Source: Octopus sinensis (lineage: Eukaryota). From it: 64,000 nucleotides of DNA. The stretch's first letter is position 1, and each line of letters starts with the position of its first letter. The notes beneath the pieces are model-generated. The model saw only the letters and a program-made list of their open reading frames with translations. It had not been told where the DNA came from and did no database searches. The stretch spans positions 4,774,001-4,838,000 of the forward strand of contig NC_043012.1 in the NCBI RefSeq assembly GCF_006345805.1, read 5' to 3'. This document shows, piece after piece, positions 15,680 through 31,689 of the stretch. Made by a program: the position numbers and the translations under genes.

Positions 15680-17826
15680 GATACTTTACGGTAATTTTTG
15701 TCTGTCAATACGTTCCGAGTTCAAATTGCACCGAGGTGGATTTTTGCTTTTCATCCTTTGGTGGTCAATAAAAGTGAAGCACTGGGGCCGATGTAATCGA
15801 CTATCTCCACCCCACCACCTCAAAACAAAGCAAAAAAAATCAGTCATTCTTCCCGTAGGAGAAAGATTATTATATCTGTATGGCTGACCTTGATCTTTTA
15901 TCAATCCAAACAAGCATATCCCAAACAATTTGTATCCAAGTCAAGGTTATTTAGAGTTGTTTGGTACTGTTGTCATGCTTATACGCTTATTCCGCGTTTT
16001 ATCCGCGTGCACGTCGAAGACTCTGTACTCAGAAGACACAGCTACCCAACCGATCGCGCATGTGAACAAGCATTGGCTTGGCTAAAACCGAGCACGAAGA
16101 GCTGATCTTCTCAGTCGTCCTGCTTCATTGATTTTATATAGTCATCTCTTGACGTTTGCCTCTTTTATCATTATTTTACTTTATAATTATTTATGGTTCT
16201 GCATTGATCCTGTACACTTATAATAACCAAACAGTTTATTTATGATTTTTGTCTAGAGCTTTCAAGCCATTATTTCCTTGACTATGACTTACTTCCTCTC
16301 TGTCGAATATACGGAATTCTGGCCAAAGAATGGTTTTATTTCCATCTTCTTTTATACTATTATAATGCAATGAACTGATAAAACAGTAAAATATCGTTCT
16401 AAATGTTTTACTTCGCCTAATTTCCCTCATTTCCGTTTTGCGTCTATGACGTGCCAGAACCGGTCTACTTTCATCCTACCCGGGTAGACACAAAATAAGT
16501 ACCAGTAATAGTCTTAATAGACTTAGATCGATTTAATTGTTAATACCACTTACCCTAGAAATGTCTGAATGTTTGCCAATTTTAGAAATCAATATTATTA
16601 TCTGAATATAGTTTTGTAATTTATTTCCAGAATATACTTTCTTAATCTAAAACAGATAATTGGGAGGAAATATTTCAGTAGAGTAAATATCACGATTTGT
16701 ACATAGATTATGGTTTATAATATTGAAACAAGGCCAGCAATTTTGCTTGATTTAGAATTAACTAAATATATCCCCATACTTGACCGCAGGTTTGTTATAC
16801 GATACTGCCCTACCGTATGAGCCACACATTGTTTTCAGTAATGATAATGGGTCCTAATTTCTGTACTAAGCTACAAATTTTGGGAATGAGAACAGTAGAT
16901 TAAATAAATTGACCTTAGTATGTTACTAGTAATTTCTTTCATTGATCCTCTTAGGCCAGTAAAGTGAATGCTGGAGAACTTTGAACTTAGAGCACAAAGG
17001 GGTATGAATAAATGCTGTCAGAGATTTATTTAACTTTCTAATAATACTGCCGCTCCTGAAGGCCAAAATCTTTGGGCAAGAGTATAGCTTTAGATCAGTT
17101 TTGGTACTTGACTGGTATTTTATTGTATCGATCGTGAAAATTGAAATAGCAAAGGTGACATAGGAAAATTTGAACCTAGAAAAAAAAGATATGTAAGAAA
17201 ATACTGCAAAGGTTTTTGTCCAAAGAAGAAAATATTAACTATTCAATAAATTATCGGTTTTCCTCATATTGCAAAGTTCAAAACATTCAGCAGTTTGATG
17301 CTACACAATCTAAAAATAAAAATAAACAGTAAGTGAATCACAATTATGAAATCTGTACCATGTATTTGCTTTGCGCAACAAAATAAAAATGTTCAGTTTT
17401 TTTGCAGCCTGCGAAGTTGTTTTACGTGTGTCCACTTACATAATCACTCTCAAATGATCACTGAACAAATATGACGCCGTCTGTCATCGCCGTCGTCTGC
17501 CATCGACATCGTCTGCCATCTTCATGACACTCGTTTCCATTAAGAAATTTTCAGATACAATGTTATGCTACACGTTCGTTGGCGATCTCTTAACCAGAAG
17601 CATGATGAGTATTCTTAGAAGTCTCTGCTGCTTTGCTTTTAATTTTAAACTCGTGCAACGAAATCACTCAAATTTGCCATACTTCTATCTGTAGTGAGAC
17701 AGCCTAAAATACACAAAAATAAGTAATGAAAGCAAAACATTTGGTATAACAATAAATAGAAATCTGTACTGGGCTTCGTATATTTTACTTCAGTCTCACT
17801 TTGATGGCATGCGCAGCACTCTCACT

Positions 17827-26020: not shown

Positions 26021-26420
26021 AGGCGGCGAGCTGGCAGAAACGTTAGCACGCCGGGCGAAATGCTTAGCGGTATTTCGTCTGCCGTTACGTTCTGAGTTCA
26101 AATTCCGCCGAGGTCGACTTTGCCTTTCATCCTTTCGGGGGTCGAGAAATTAAGTACCAGTTACGCACTGGGGTCGATGTAATCGACTTAATCTGTTTGT
26201 CTGTCCTTGTTTGTCCCCTTTATGTTTAGCCCCTTGTGGGTAATAAAGAATTAGGGATTTCGTCTGTCTTTACGTTATGCATTCACATTCCGCCGAGGTC
26301 GACTTTGCCTTTCATCCTTTCGGGGTCGATAAATTAAGTACCAGTTACGTACTGGTGTCGATCTAAACGACTGGTCCCCTCCCCCCAAATTTTGGGCTTT
26401 GTACCTAGAATATAAAAGAA
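26021..26420 (+). mobile_element. SINE family A dimer with TSD
   Basis: Head plus two units. TSD TACATACAGACTGTC (26006-26020) / TATATACAGACCGTC (26421-26435). Confidence 0.88.
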
Positions 26421-26576
26421 TATATACAGACCGTCGTCATGCTGTAATTCACATGATGAAGCATTGCATGTCAGTATTTGTAGTATGTTCCTTACATAGG
26501 TGGAAGCATGATGCGTCTGAAACACCAGATCGTTTGACCGAGTAGTAGCATTCTCTACGTCTATTCGATAAAGTCT

Positions 26577-26756
26577 TCAGATGACTAAATTCTTAGCAGA
26601 GGGAAGATGATATTACTAAAAACAGAAACGTCACTTCCGGCGGCCGGCATCCGGGGACGCCTGGTAATACTAGCAGGCGTCCAGCAATTATTAGATCGGC
26701 CGCCATGATAATATATATATATACAGGTCAGATTAACCTAGTTTCAGTAGCAGTCA
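26577..26756 (+). repeat. Left direct repeat of the viral element (intergenic/origin region)
   Basis: TCAGATGAC...GTTTCAGTAGCAGTCA aligns to 28729-28894 with about ten substitutions and a few indels, by eye. Contains ACGTCACTTCCGG (CRE/ETS-like) and a TATATA run upstream of the cap ATG. Confidence 0.93.
26655..26682 (-). promoter_or_regulatory. Rolling-circle origin stem-loop with canonical nonamer TAGTATTAC (left copy)
   Basis: Perfect 9-bp stem GGACGCCTG (26655-26663) / CAGGCGTCC (26674-26682). Loop GTAATACTAG reads CTAGTATTAC on the minus strand. Confidence 0.95.
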
Positions 26757-27543
26757 TGCCGATAAGATCAGCGTGGGCGTATGGTACAAGACGACGACCT
26801 CATAGAAGGAGGAGAAGACAATGGAAACTAACACCATTCTCAACTATGAGATACATTAAAGCCAAAATATTATTAAAAAAAAAAGGCGCTTCCTTTGGAG
26901 AAAGAAACCGGGAGAACACAGGACTCCAAATTACCTATACAAAACCTATTGGATGGAGGAACCTGTGAAAATTATTAAAGGCGAAACACAATTCTCGCTA
27001 ACATGCAACTGGCAGAAAATGATAAAACTAGTTAAACCAACCGAAGGAGACATACTTAAACATACGTAGGTCTGCTTCGAAGTTATTAGATTCGGATCTA
27101 CATTCGAATTACCTACAATAATCAAACACGGTGAAATGATACCCCGAATATACTGGGCCTACGACAGGGACCTACAAGGAAGACATATCGAATACAAAGA
27201 GATGATTAAAATGAATAACTGCAGGATGAGACATTTAAAAACGGGAAGAAGAGCGGCAATAAGTTACGGACCAAAATGGTCGTGGCAAACAGATGATGCA
27301 AGCTACCATGAATTCGATAAGAACCCGTATCCGAAGTTATTTCTGACAAGAAGTCAAACAGACGACATAGCACAGGCACCGTGGGGTTCTGTGAAGGATA
27401 AGGCTTGGCCAAAGAACAGCTACAACGGAGTAGCGTGCACACTACAGGCCGAACTGGAAGAGATCATACCGGTTAATACTTGGATAACAATAAAACTAAC
27501 AGGAAGAAGAAACGGTGAACAATACCTGGCTGAGGCAGAATAA
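26756..27543 (+). pseudogene. cap: Putative CRESS-virus capsid protein (~262 aa reconstructed), one frameshift and one nonsense codon
   Basis: ATG at 26756 reads MPIRSAWAYGTRRRPHRRRRRQW (basic N-terminal arm). Frame changes at the A10 run 26875-26884 into KRRFLWRKKPGEH..., has an in-frame TAG at 27067-27069, then continues into ORF 27136-27543. Position, orientation and size fit a circovirus-like capsid. Fold homology was not verified. Confidence 0.8.
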
Positions 27544-27580
27544 TAAACAAACACTGTACTTCAGTTCAATAAATTTTATT
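27542..27580. terminator. Bidirectional polyadenylation signals between convergent cap and rep
   Basis: AATAAA on + at 27542-27547 and 27568-27573. TTTATT (AATAAA on -) at 27575-27580. All lie at or within the ~50-bp gap between the two stop codons. Confidence 0.7.
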
Positions 27581-27592
27581 TTCTTCTCAATT

Positions 27593-28724
27593 TTACATTT
27601 TTCGTTTGAGTTCTTCTTTCAATTCCAAGATGCGTTGCTTCAGGTATTTATTTTCAGTCTCGTACTGCTTACACTTGCAAATTGTTGTTGTGTTATACGA
27701 GAAGATATTAAACGGTGAATGAATTGCATCTAGCGAATCATTTTTCGGAGCGGATTCTCCGATAGCAGCCCATCCACCTTCTGCAAACAGTTCGCATTCA
27801 CTGCGGTCGAGCTGGTCGATCAGTTCTTTCTCACTTGCTGTGAAGGACGGCGTATGATCTGCAGGGGTTGGGGCGGGGGCAAGTGTTGGTTGGGTAGTTG
27901 CGATCACAAACTCATTGTCAATATTTCCATATATCTTTTGATAGTCTTCTGTAGTGAAAAAACGAACGTCCCAGCGGTCAGCAGACATCTTAGAACGGTC
28001 AGGTTCAAAATTAGCGAAAACGACAACGTGCGGTATAGGAAAAGTCTTGGTCACAGGCACATACTTGGTGGAACATATTAATCCGTTCTTGATACTTTCG
28101 ATTACGTCATAGTTAAAGTGATCCTTTTGAGAACGCGTATAATCGAATACAGCTATACTCTGGCCGTCATACTTGTACTTGATATCTACAGAACGGCCAT
28201 TCTCAAAACGTATACCGTCAATAGTTTGCAAATAACGGGACAAGTAGGCTTTACCAGAATTACCGACTGGATCGCAATACCAAATTATTTTCCGAGAGTC
28301 CGGCTTCTTTTTCAGCTCCTGTATAAGACGAAACTGCCACCGCTGCCAAACTACGTTCTCATATTCCATCCCAATTAAATCGAGAGTACGCTTCTTCTTG
28401 GATTCTACAAACAAATTACCTACTGCTCGAACATTATTACGATAGGCATTTATTAGATCGGAGTCGTCGTGGGTTAAAACATACTCCTCCGGGTTACTAG
28501 TAGAATTCCGTACGATATTACGAATGTTATCAGAAACTTTAGACTTCTTCTCTTTAGATGACAAATTCCTTTCACCACACTCGATAACTACATTCCCTTC
28601 CTTCGAACAATACTGGAAGTTATCCTTTTCAGATCCTATGTATCTATATGAGCACGGCTAATTCTTCGTCTGTGTAATTATTCAAAGTAAAACAGAAGCG
28701 TCGATACATAGGAGTGTGAGGCAT
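27593..28724 (-). pseudogene. rep: CRESS-DNA virus replication initiator Rep (HUH endonuclease + SF3 helicase), disrupted near its N-terminus
   Basis: ATG at 28724 reads MPHTPMYRRFCFTLNNYTDEELAVLI* (RCR motif I FTLNN at 28677-28691). Motif II (HxQ/HUH) is absent. A second frame is open 28657-27593 with motif III YCSK (28601-28612), Walker A GNSGKA (28247-28264), Walker B VFDYTR, motif C VVVFAN and Arg finger SADRW. The pattern WQ..PDSRKIIWY, NYDVIESIKNG, STKY resembles nanovirus/alphasatellite-type CRESS Reps. Confidence 0.95.
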
Positions 28725-28728
28725 TTTG

Positions 28729-28894
28729 TCAGATGACGGAATTCTTAGCAGAGGGAAGATTATATAACTAAAAAATACCGGCGGCCGGCATCCGCGGACG
28801 CCTGGTTTATACTAGCAGGCGTCCAGCAATTATTAGATCGGCCACCACGATAATATATATACACGTCAGATTAACCTAGTTTCAGTAGCAGTCA
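28729..28894 (+). repeat. Right direct repeat of the viral element (intergenic/origin region)
   Basis: Copy of 26577-26756 that begins 5 nt from the rep ATG (28724). TATATAA at 28761 is a candidate rep TATA box. It lacks the ~12-bp ACGTCACTT segment. Confidence 0.93.
28796..28824 (-). promoter_or_regulatory. Second origin stem-loop with altered nonamer (TAGTATAAAC)
   Basis: Identical 9-bp stem (28796-28804 / 28816-28824). The 11-nt loop GTTTATACTAG reads CTAGTATAAAC on the minus strand. Confidence 0.9.
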
Positions 28895-29287
28895 AACATG
28901 TTATCAGTAACTGTAGAGCTCGTATATCTATTTAAAAAAAAATTAAATAGATGCTTACGTAGATATAAAGCTCATGTGTTTCAAGACTAAAGGGAGATAA
29001 CAATGTGTTGTTTTCATGTCATCCAGAAAGCTTTTGTGGCTTAAATGAAACGATGTAGTTTGAAACTAGATTATCCTTGTAATGGTTCCGAACAGTGAGT
29101 TGGAACATACCAGAGTATAATCTGTAATTGTGAAAGCAATGTTTCATAGCGAAGGGATAACGATTCTGATTCAATTCCCTTTGGAGACCACTGAATTCGT
29201 TTACGTCTGTAATAGTTTCTCTTCTTTCATTCTATGAATTCTGCAATTTATTTGTGATCAACAATTCAGGAATGATAGAGAAGATAA

Positions 29288-30090
29288 AATTTCGTCTGTC
29301 TTTACGTCCCAAGTTCAAATTCCGCCGAGGTCGACTTTGCTTTTCATCCTTTCGGGGTCGATTAAATAGATACCATCGTCTGCCGCTACGTTCTGAGTTC
29401 AAATTCCGCCGAGGTCGACTTTGCTTTTCATCCTTTCGGGATCGATAAAATAAGTACCAGTTACGCACTGGGGTCGATATAATCGACTTAATCCGTTTGT
29501 CTGTCCTTGTTTGCCCCCTCTCTGTTTAGCCCCTTGTGGGTAGTAAAGAAATAGGTATTTCGTCTGCTGTTACGCTTGCGGTATTTCGTCTGCCGCTACG
29601 TTCTAAGTTCAAATTCCGCCGAGGTCGACTTTGCCTATCATCCTTCCGGAGTTGAATAAATAAGTACCAGTTACGCACTGGGGGTCGATGTAATCGACTT
29701 AATCCCTTTGTCTGTCCTTGTTTGCCCCCTCTATGTTTAGCCCCTTGTGGGCAGTAAAGAAATAAGAAACGTTAGCCGCCGCGCGAAATGCTTATCGGTG
29801 TTTCATGTCTTTACGTTCTGAGTTCAAATTATGCCGAGGTCGACTGTGCCTTTCATCTTTTCGGGATCGATAAATTAAGTACCAGTTGCATACTAGGGTC
29901 GATCTAATCGACTGGCCCCTCCCCCAAAATTTCAGGCCTTGTGCCTAGAGTAGAAAAGAATCTTTAACACTCCGGGCTTAGCAGCGTTTCGTCCGTCCTT
30001 ACGTTCTGAGTTCAAATTCTGCTGAGGTCGACTTTGCCTTTCATTCTCTCGGGGTCGATAAAATAAGTACCACTTGAGCACTGAGGCAAT
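29288..30090 (+). mobile_element. SINE family A tandem array
   Basis: Five or more copies of the GAGTTCAAATTCCGCCGAGGTCGACTTTG unit. Confidence 0.85.
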
Positions 30091-31689
30091 AAAATTTACC
30101 CACTTCTCCCTTCTTGCAGTTCTTGTGTCAAAATTTGAAACTAGAATTAATCAATCAAAAAGTCAACTGACAAATCATGTATTCTAGATGCACAATGCCA
30201 CCGCCTATTTGAACGTTCATACTAAAGATTGCCAGATTCATTAGAATGTTGCACAAAATACGTTGCAGCATTTGTTCCGTCTCTCTGTAGTCCCAGTTCA
30301 AATCCCGCCAAGATCAACTTTAAACTTCATCTTTTCGAGGATCAAGGAGGAAGACTGAAAAAATTCGTTAGATTTTCGAGTGTGAGTGCGTGAGTGCCTG
30401 GCAAAATATCTTCTGAAACCATTGGGTCCTCAGATTTTGTGTTTGATACTTAAAAGAAATATATAAAATAGTAAAGAAATAGATACTTAAACAATCACCC
30501 GGTTTAACACTCTCTGATTCTTAGGTGCTTTTCATTAATTTCACTGCGCCTCAAGCATTTGGTTTGAGGATAACTTCCTATTATAAGTCACAGAAGCTTC
30601 AGGAAGATACAAAACCACGTGCTCTTCACTCTGAATAGATTGTACAAAACATACTGCATAATACGTCGCGGCGACAACATTATGAATTTGATGTGAAGGC
30701 GACAGCGTGGATGTGTGAAGGAGAAGCTTGCTTCTGAATTACATGATTGCGGGTCCATTCCCAATGTGTGGTACCTTGGGCGTGCCGACCAAAATGGATT
30801 TGGTAGACAGAACCTGAAACCGCCCGTACACACACACACACACCACACAAACACACGCACATCAATATGTGCTACCACCACAATGGTAGTCATCTGTTAC
30901 TACTACTACTACTACTACTTCTGACGCCATTTTTAACAACACACATATCGACAGAAACGGCTACTGTGATAAAAGTATATACAAGATTAAAAACAAATTT
31001 TACCACGAGATTGTTTTACTATAACAAGGTAACTGAGTATATTTTCAAAGATTCTGAAGCATTTTGCTGATAAAACAAACCAAAATATTGCTTAATAAGT
31101 GATTCTGGCACATTCGATCACGAACATGATAACCTCGCTTAGAGGTTAAAAAATTGCTCTTCTGCTCACTTCCTGTGACCAGTTGGATAGTGATTCAAAT
31201 CCATTTGTATTCCAATGAAATCTATTTGCTTCTGGCTAATTAACTAGAAATTAGGGGGAATTGTTTGAAAACAGAGATTTACTAACAATCTAAATTGTAT
31301 TTTGTATCGTTTAAATCTTTGCTGGTTGTGATTGGCCAGCCTTAGAGTCTCTATTTTATTATTGTGATTATGGCGTCCATTTTCTCTCTCGATGCTGACA
31401 AGTTATGCATCTTTATTGTGCCGTGTGCAATGACTTCCAATTTTTTCGGTTTTTTTCCCTCATTTGATATGGAATTTATGCCTTTGTTGCTGAAACATCC
31501 GTGATGATATCGCTTTCTGCATTTAAGCATGAGCTGAATATATTTGTTTTATTCTTTAATTTTTATTAATTCTTTTAACCAATTCTTTCTGCTTTGGAAA
31601 TTCTTGGATTTTTAAAAAAATTATTTTCATATAAATTTCCTCTTTCTATTATTATAAAAAAGTTTTAGTTATTTCCTTCCACCTCCCTC

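Follow-up and report, generated by a model that had tools for sequence, protein, structure and literature searches.

A single endogenous copy of an unclassified CRESS DNA virus between two origin-bearing repeats in the genome of Octopus sinensis

Can a viral unit that lies in a host chromosome between two copies of its own replication origin leave that chromosome again, or does such a layout record a single capture? This question is raised by a locus in a 64,000-nucleotide stretch of the Octopus sinensis genome (contig NC_043012.1, positions 4,774,001 to 4,838,000; referred to as the window, in whose numbering all coordinates are given). Partial-dimer (1.1-mer) clones of geminiviruses and circoviruses are built with two origins around one unit, and LTR retroelements have terminal direct repeats that carry promoters and can be dated. 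A previous sequence-only reading had proposed that the locus is, or derives from, an excisable provirus or a Rep-mobilised virus-transposon hybrid, rather than a randomly broken concatemer.

Layout and viral affiliation of the element

The element at positions 26577-28894 derives from a Rep-encoding ssDNA (CRESS) virus, the parts of which follow one another in the order origin, likely cap, rep and origin, and amounts to ~1.08 genome units. The following features were distinguished in the element and its surroundings:

26577-26756, no strand: left intergenic copy, with origin hairpin and two putative back-to-back promoters
26655-26682, minus strand: left origin hairpin, with a 9-bp stem and a 10-nt loop containing TAGTATTAC at 26672-26664
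26756-27543, plus strand: likely capsid gene with an Arg-rich start, broken
27544-27592, no strand: short 3' intergenic region (49 nt), with AATAAA on both strands
27593-28724, minus strand: rep pseudogene
28729-28894, no strand: right intergenic copy, with a hairpin at 28796-28824, the loop of which is altered in this genome
28898-28917, plus strand: right-junction 20-mer that may be templated filler, identical to rep 28524-28543 at 18 of 20 positions
26432-26574, minus strand: exon of a spliced RNA beginning at the left virus-host junction, with a GT donor at 26431-26430
17000-17703, minus strand: downstream host exon, spliced to the preceding exon over a GT-AG intron of 8.7 kb; its left limit is approximate

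The duplicated part of the element is the viral intergenic region. It forms a direct repeat with a distance of 2152 nt from start to start (blastn, 85% identity with gaps, E 1e-54). The right copy starts at a distance of 5 nt from the rep start codon (minus strand, 28724-28722). The left copy runs up to and includes the first base (26756) of the likely cap start codon, which was assigned via a paralogue and the Arg-rich start, without a family match. The repeat, its two ends and the single genome unit between two origins had all been described correctly in the sequence-only reading, and its estimate of about ten substitutions in ~165 bp was close to the 11 substitutions and three indels that we counted over 165 aligned columns. 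The 5 nt immediately beyond the left end resemble, by eye, the rep leader of the paralogous locus L017, and the true left end may therefore lie a few bases further out. The probability that both ends fall within 5 nt of a start codon was calculated, post hoc, to be 2e-5 under uniform breakpoints and 0.4-1.4% with breaks limited to the intergenic region. The earlier view that the element was not randomly broken thus holds in so far as uniform breakage would have left less orderly ends; the excisable element that had been deduced from this order was not supported.

Each copy of the repeat carries a 9-bp GC stem, and the stem-loop with a NANTATTAC-type nonanucleotide that characterises CRESS viruses is present in the intergenic region. 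The nonanucleotide lies in the loop of the left copy and is read on the minus (rep) strand. The altered loop of the right copy was not seen in RNA contigs from sister lineages, and the alteration looks younger than the lineage split. The two origins lie in direct orientation around one unit, as in a releasable 1.x-mer; unlike a partial-dimer clone, the octopus element combines them with an altered right loop and a rep gene that lacks motif II. From established CRESS biology we take the nick to fall between positions 26666 and 26665. The ends of the element are 89 and 87 nt away from this position and, therefore, the junctions were not made by nicking and joining through Rep.

Alignment with a paralogue and a metagenomic Rep showed that rep encodes motif I, followed by a ~140-nt deletion over motif II and then by motif III and an SF3 helicase. 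The frame is broken near 28650, and a 354-codon open frame beyond this point holds motif III and the helicase. The loss of motif II and the frame break had not been mentioned in the sequence-only reading. For the 354-codon frame 88 homologues were found, most of them with PF02407 (Viral_Rep), the best being a predicted Octopus vulgaris protein (95% identical) that is encoded on a 78-Mb scaffold. The nuclease domain of L017 matched PF02407 (E 2.6e-23) and circovirus Rep structures in the PDB, the latter matches being limited to residues 7-97 of the paralogue (7-96 for a 314-aa circovirus-type Rep). The combination of HUH nuclease and SF3 helicase that marks the Rep of an endogenous CRESS DNA virus (Cressdnaviricota) is therefore present, with motif II deleted in this copy.

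With respect to the family, the ambisense arrangement of rep and cap, the origin on the rep-coding strand with its TAGTATTAC loop and the nuclease domain of L017 are shared with the genus Circovirus. In contrast, the model of the helicase half (pLDDT 84) matched the fold of CRESS Reps at E 8e-22, and the named matches were mostly Reps of unclassified CRESS viruses, cruciviruses, nanoviruses and alphasatellites, with a single 'Circoviridae sp.' among them; no match to a circovirus Rep in the PDB was obtained for the helicase half. The available part of PMC6668415 places the Reps of Nanoviridae, Circoviridae and CRESSV1-5 in one clade. The virus has a circovirus-like layout but, judged by PDB and fold matches of Rep rather than by a tree, would fall outside the Circoviridae. 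The element is an endogenous copy of an unclassified CRESS DNA virus.

The plus-strand gene is likely to encode the capsid, as suggested by its position, its Arg-rich start and three paralogues. Searches for a capsid family or fold in Pfam, the PDB, the Atlas and a word index, and by fold modelling (pLDDT 35), gave nothing usable apart from five unnamed homologues, and the circovirus capsid family did not match. The gene is broken by a frame change near an A-run (~26870-26880) and by a stop codon at 27067-27069, and these breaks look younger than the lineage split. AATAAA motifs are located at 27542 and 27568 on the plus strand and at 27575-27580 on the minus strand, and the 3' intergenic region is 86% identical to L017 over 44 nt.

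Orthology, age and transcription of the locus

To compare lineages, sequencing runs were examined as Logan contigs; X7 and X16 are DNA runs with other organism labels, and X17 carries the organism label of the window. DNA contigs of X3, X7 and X16 cross both junctions and cover the interior, and the locus was fixed in all DNA runs examined. Sister octopus lineages carry the insertion at the orthologous position; it is joined to host DNA and has been inherited. X7 differed from the element by 49 changes in 2158 nt, and the gaps in this comparison do not include the rep deletion, which therefore predates the lineage split; indeed, motif II is missing from rep in every lineage examined. The contig depth in X7 was 68 inside the element and 70 and 63 in the flanks, values that are not a measure of copy number. 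These observations leave practically no room for an assembly artefact or a contaminating viral circle: the terminal repeats on a 2.15-kb unit do resemble a mis-joined circle, but the repeat copies differ from one another, independent runs with other organism labels cross both junctions, and the closely related protein is annotated on a 78-Mb scaffold of O. vulgaris.

Of the 11 substitutions between the repeats, 5 were shared with the sister lineages, 4 were absent from them and 2 were ambiguous, and one larger indel between the repeats was also common to the sister lineages. In this comparison the left copy was taken from X7 and X16 and the right copy from X8 and X9, which represent different haplotypes. 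Between lineages the repeats diverged by 3.3-4.4% and the genes by 2.3%. The repeats' own rate gives an age of ~4.4 My, and the insertion is roughly 4-10 My old if the repeats were identical at insertion and have not undergone conversion. The repeat pair can thus serve as an approximate clock, as the sequence-only reading had anticipated, and this clock agrees with the orthology.

The ratio of non-synonymous to synonymous changes was 8:4 in rep (omega 0.78) and 20:3 in cap, compared to a neutral expectation of ~72:28 (stop codon site left out). Purifying selection was not found on either frame, and the element evolves neutrally. It should be noted that the 354-codon frame is still open in at least two lineages. 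Together with the young breaks in cap, this is mildly more than neutral decay predicts, with small counts.

RNA from the locus was found in runs for which RNA is a predicted label (X8, X9 and X17), the sole support for this label being a spliced contig of X8. X8 and X9, which belong to two studies, each gave a cap contig (~26860-27480), a rep contig (from 27560 or 27586 to 28856 or 28919) and a third contig that runs from 26431 to 26574 or 26560 and has a loose end. In X8 the loose end maps to 17682-17702, and the join has a GT (minus strand, 26431) on one side and, on the other, an AG that follows a stretch of pyrimidines (17704). This GT-AG splice join identifies the contig as true RNA. The loose end of the X9 contig, sought as a second spliced exon, was not located. 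X17 contributed two rep pieces at low depth. The left repeat and the right flank had no RNA cover, a gap that we do not count as evidence. In a public O. vulgaris gene model, an exon ~22 kb away is spliced into rep. The rep contig of X9 ends ~15 nt past a minus-strand AATAAA, which is a weak hint of viral polyadenylation. A sister lineage therefore transcribes the locus, and one of the RNAs starts at the left junction and is spliced. The start of its exon, 2-3 nt outside the left end and with the same donor used in the second study, fits an outward-firing rep promoter in the left repeat. Since an AG directly precedes this start, the exon would fit equally well as an internal part of a host transcript.

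Copy number, related loci and a virus-derived satellite

The sequence-only reading had called for a search for further copies, solo origin repeats and paralogues with shared termini. The genome was searched with the intergenic region, the interior and the stem pattern; these searches rank the best candidates only, so that all counts are lower bounds and old solo repeats may be missed. The unit gave one full match and one rep piece of 66% identity, the intergenic region two matches, both within the element, and the stem pattern two places. No solo repeat or further copy of the unit was found, which goes against the expectation for a mobile element. Both flanks, examined as a possible empty-site control, are single-copy, and no rep or cap similarity was detected outside the unit when a second viral component was sought.

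The helicase query yielded 12 matches at 9 loci, the capsid query 4 loci and the nuclease query 115 matches, of which only those at 2 loci cover the whole domain. All rep loci among these matches, again lower bounds, are truncated or broken, and the genome yielded no complete rep gene. None of the 11 other non-satellite viral loci shows a unit between repeats, nor do they share termini: they are fragments with different ends, the rep pieces starting and stopping at differing residues. Two of them hold both rep and cap pieces, and one of these two, L017, is internally inverted. A scan for origin hairpins was passed by none of the 8 loci examined (L017-L024). Pieces that start within the intergenic region are common among the paralogues (L017, L058, L059 and the satellite module described below). 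At L058, where the empty site could be read from a sister host copy, an ISXO2-like transposase copy has lost ~40 host bases and gained ~410 nt of rep in their place, with no duplication. Repeats of 1238 nt around L019 were considered as viral and rejected, as they are host duplications without viral similarity. With at least 12 loci and the satellite, this virus lineage has infected octopus germ cells repeatedly.

At the element itself, no abutting target duplication of 2 nt or more, no LTR-type TG...CA termini (the left end is TC, the right end CA) and no integrase or reverse transcriptase ORF was found. At the right junction, the filler 20-mer begins three bases past the end of the element, and its 18 matching positions were reached by 3 of 1500 background blocks; nothing alike was found at the left junction (best 15 of 20). 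No joint over the element, indicative of a circle or an empty allele, was listed for 7 distinct runs of 24, in contigs that are interrupted where the two repeats share sequence and that omit rare forms.

The remaining nuclease matches (112 of 115) cover only the start of Rep and form 33 clusters by hand count, with at least 112 copies. In all 13 matches displayed, the module consists of a TATA-like box, a leader and ~36 codons and lies inside GAAAATTTT-type arrays. Mapping of 11 clusters showed 1-20 modules each, in both orientations. The 10 arrays compared had no shared termini, and no GC hairpin was seen in the module by eye. The satellite module derives from a relative of this virus, and not from this element.

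Origin of the layout and its meaning

The explanation that we consider probable is that the locus represents a single, fixed and broken copy of ~1.08 units, likely captured once in the germ line by end-joining of a replication intermediate that was longer than one unit. Rolling-circle or recombination-dependent replication would have generated its source, a double-stranded concatemer that likely broke near the two outward-facing transcription starts, exposed and break-prone sites of the viral minichromosome. Such breaks would explain why the duplicated part is the intergenic region. In begomoviruses, according to the available part of PMC3187698, sites accessible to transcription and replication factors are the commonest places of dsDNA breakage, and origins are recombination hot spots. 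Carried over by analogy from these plant viruses, breakage at promoters may also apply to the octopus virus. It partly accounts for the neat ends, making them less strange without explaining them fully in view of the 0.4-1.4% given above, and some other end-defining process may lie behind them. Host end-joining repair would then have patched a chromosome break with the viral piece, leaving the right-junction 20-mer, a single instance, as possible templated filler, and the insertion would have become fixed in the germ line. The repeats would have been identical at that time, as the proposed age presupposes, and would act in an LTR-like manner only passively, by promoter read-out and rare pop-out through recombination.

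Two alternatives appear improbable to about the same degree. In the first, a viral circle recombined, in the manner of a Campbell-type integration, with a chromosomal copy of the intergenic region or with a second component sharing that region, so that the repeats need not have been identical. The neat ends would be explained directly, since such an event duplicates precisely the intergenic region. This possibility is in line with the frequency of pieces starting in that region and with the repeat differences common to the sister lineages (5-7 of 11 substitutions and one larger indel). However, no solo copy of the intergenic region was found anywhere in the genome, the single-copy flanks lack rep and cap similarity, two rare events at one site would be required, and a pre-split repeat divergence of 3-4% corresponds to only a few My of drift.

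In the second, the original insert was a longer concatemer, which selection subsequently trimmed or maintained because its outer promoters serve a host RNA or antiviral small RNAs, as in LTR-like exaptation. This would be consistent with the spliced RNA at the left end and its reused donor, with the distant exon of the O. vulgaris gene model and with the fixation of the locus. It is opposed by the absence of purifying selection on both frames and by repeats whose divergence between lineages is no slower than that of the genes. Moreover, the AG before the exon start would also suit an internal host exon that is not driven by a viral promoter, and no mechanism is known that would trim an insert to both ATGs.

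The excisable provirus or Rep-mobilised hybrid with defined ends is, in our opinion, less likely still. The two directly oriented origins around one unit, the unaltered right loop in RNA contigs of sister lineages and the coverage of both genes by RNA-type contigs would suit such an element. Against this stand the single copy without solo repeats or termini shared with the 11 other loci, the ends away from the nick without target duplication, the loss of motif II before the species split, the lack of a whole rep among 12 helicase and 115 nuclease matches and, as a weak argument from contigs only, the lack of a listed joint in the 7 distinct runs. A single copy, missing solo repeats and scattered paralogue breakpoints were three of the four observations that the sequence-only reading had itself named as speaking for a chance capture. 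Autonomous mobility of the element is thus largely refuted.

Helitrons and Replitrons combine an HUH-helicase gene with a hairpin. Such a gene and a hairpin are also present in the octopus element, and its datable terminal direct repeats, which would hold promoters, recall LTR retroelements. Unlike these mobile elements, it has no integrase, target duplication, solo repeat or copy family, and its ends are off the nick. The many copies, shared termini and intact HUH transposase of rolling-circle transposons (Helitron, Replitron or IS91-like) were likewise not found, in genome searches that set lower bounds. The element resembles LTR elements in its shape and perhaps in promoter read-out; it is no new kind of mobile element.

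Comparable captures have been described in other hosts. As far as the available part of PMC4231630 goes, endogenous CRESS or circovirus-like elements in Armadillidium (isopod), Crassostrea (oyster) and Lottia (limpet) also represent multiple independent insertions of Rep viruses without target duplications, and the mollusc Reps lean towards nanoviruses; those elements are protein fragments, whereas the octopus locus has a whole unit, both intergenic regions, two origins, orthology and RNA. In plants, the accessible text of PMC5014472 describes the GRD repeats of Nicotiana and EGV1 and EGV2 of Dioscorea as integrated repeats of origin plus rep. The GRD repeats share neutral decay and an age of a few My with the octopus element, and the octopus satellite, with promoter and rep start in arrays, parallels them; EGV shares transcription, which occurs without detectable episomes. 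In contrast to the single octopus 1.08-mer, these plant sequences form long tandem arrays, and EGV rep is under purifying selection, which octopus rep is not. Replicational release of geminiviruses from concatemers is documented in the part of PMC3187698 available to us. Literature searches for octopus or cephalopod CRESS elements returned no matching title or abstract start, with the proviso that supplements of EVE screens may list such loci, and the same was true for origin-flanked endogenous circoviral units and satellites derived from ssDNA viruses, in a search with most subscription papers outside its scope. The layout is unusually complete for an endogenous CRESS element.

A more far-reaching idea, which we regard as unlikely though somewhat less so than the alternatives above, is that preferential breakage of octopus CRESS viruses at transcription starts yields an LTR-like cassette, in which an outer promoter drives a spliced host RNA and twin origins can be released upon infection by a cognate virus; promoters spread by the satellite to at least 30 sites would then form a dispersed source of promoters or antiviral RNA in cephalopods. 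Of these findings, the satellite and the spliced junction RNA are the most promising for further work. As a fossil of a virus lineage that repeatedly infected octopus germ cells, the element itself is nearly complete and dated. Because it retains both intergenic regions, it reveals the promoters, polyadenylation signals and origin of a mollusc virus that is otherwise unknown, and its twin repeats provide an internal clock.

The Rep start module in the O. sinensis genome

The Rep nuclease domain search of the Octopus sinensis genome (G000) returned matches confined almost entirely to the start of the protein: at least 112 of 115 span just the first 34-68 codons, with 150 of 166 candidates scored. 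These matches form at least 33 clusters, distributed over at least 10 large and 4 small contigs, examples of which are as follows.

Example Rep-start clusters from the nuclease-domain search of G000
L034, L048-L057, L061, L062

All 13 matches inspected contain a single type of module of ~180 nt, which comprises a TATA-like box, a leader, an ATG and ~36 Rep codons with motif I, and which is 74-100% identical among copies. The modules occur in both orientations and are enclosed by minisatellite arrays of the GAAAATTTT type, 0.4-10 kb in size, and comparison of 10 arrays revealed no common ends. The Rep-start arrays are a virus-derived dispersed satellite, the source of which is a relative of the element's virus.

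Other viral loci

Further loci in G000 carry other pieces of viral sequence.

Viral loci in G000
L017:3344-5480 (contig C3); paralogue comprising cap, a 3' intergenic region, a rep tail and, inverted relative to cap, a 5' rep piece
L058:4650-5060 (contig C14); rep promoter plus nuclease domain (~410 nt) inserted in a copy of an ISXO2-like transposase
L019:2989-8862 (contig C19); rep and cap fragments flanked by host repeats
L059:4676-5500; capsid-like piece without rep
L060:4980-5261; capsid-like piece without rep

At the outer end of L017 lies a perfect palindrome of ~55 nt that adjoins a TA run. For L058, the empty site is seen in a sister copy of the transposase 4.5 kb distant, and this comparison showed that ~40 bases were replaced and that the insertion is accompanied by no duplication. 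The host repeats flanking L019 are 1238 nt long and 96% identical, and the capsid-like piece of L059 has an Arg-rich start with non-coding DNA upstream.

Transcripts at the borders of the element

The element may serve as the last exon of a host transcript, because P0001, a gene model of O. vulgaris, opens with residues that correspond to an exon ~22 kb off (window ~50260-50230, minus strand) that terminates in a strong donor. In P0001 this exon is spliced into rep near 28500, and a contig from the sister-lineage run X8 also stops at an AG (window 28920-28919).

A spliced RNA of a sister lineage begins at the left junction, with an exon at window 26574-26432 (minus) joined across an 8.7-kb GT-AG intron to another that runs leftwards from 17703 (minus). 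In a second study, the identical donor was joined to a different exon. This RNA reflects either an outward promoter of the left repeat or an acceptor made at the junction. A SINE-like interspersed repeat of very high copy number is clustered on both sides of the insertion (window 26060-26430 and 29280-30350).

Relatives in other octopus genomes

Annotated genes of O. bimaculoides and O. vulgaris (P0002/P0089 and P0003) consist of Rep helicase fragments from the virus family to which the element belongs, with 48-52% identity to the element's Rep versus 81-82% to locus L021 of G000. The presence of such pieces in both species points to an entry of this virus family into octopus genomes that, judged from these sequences, extended over a long time.
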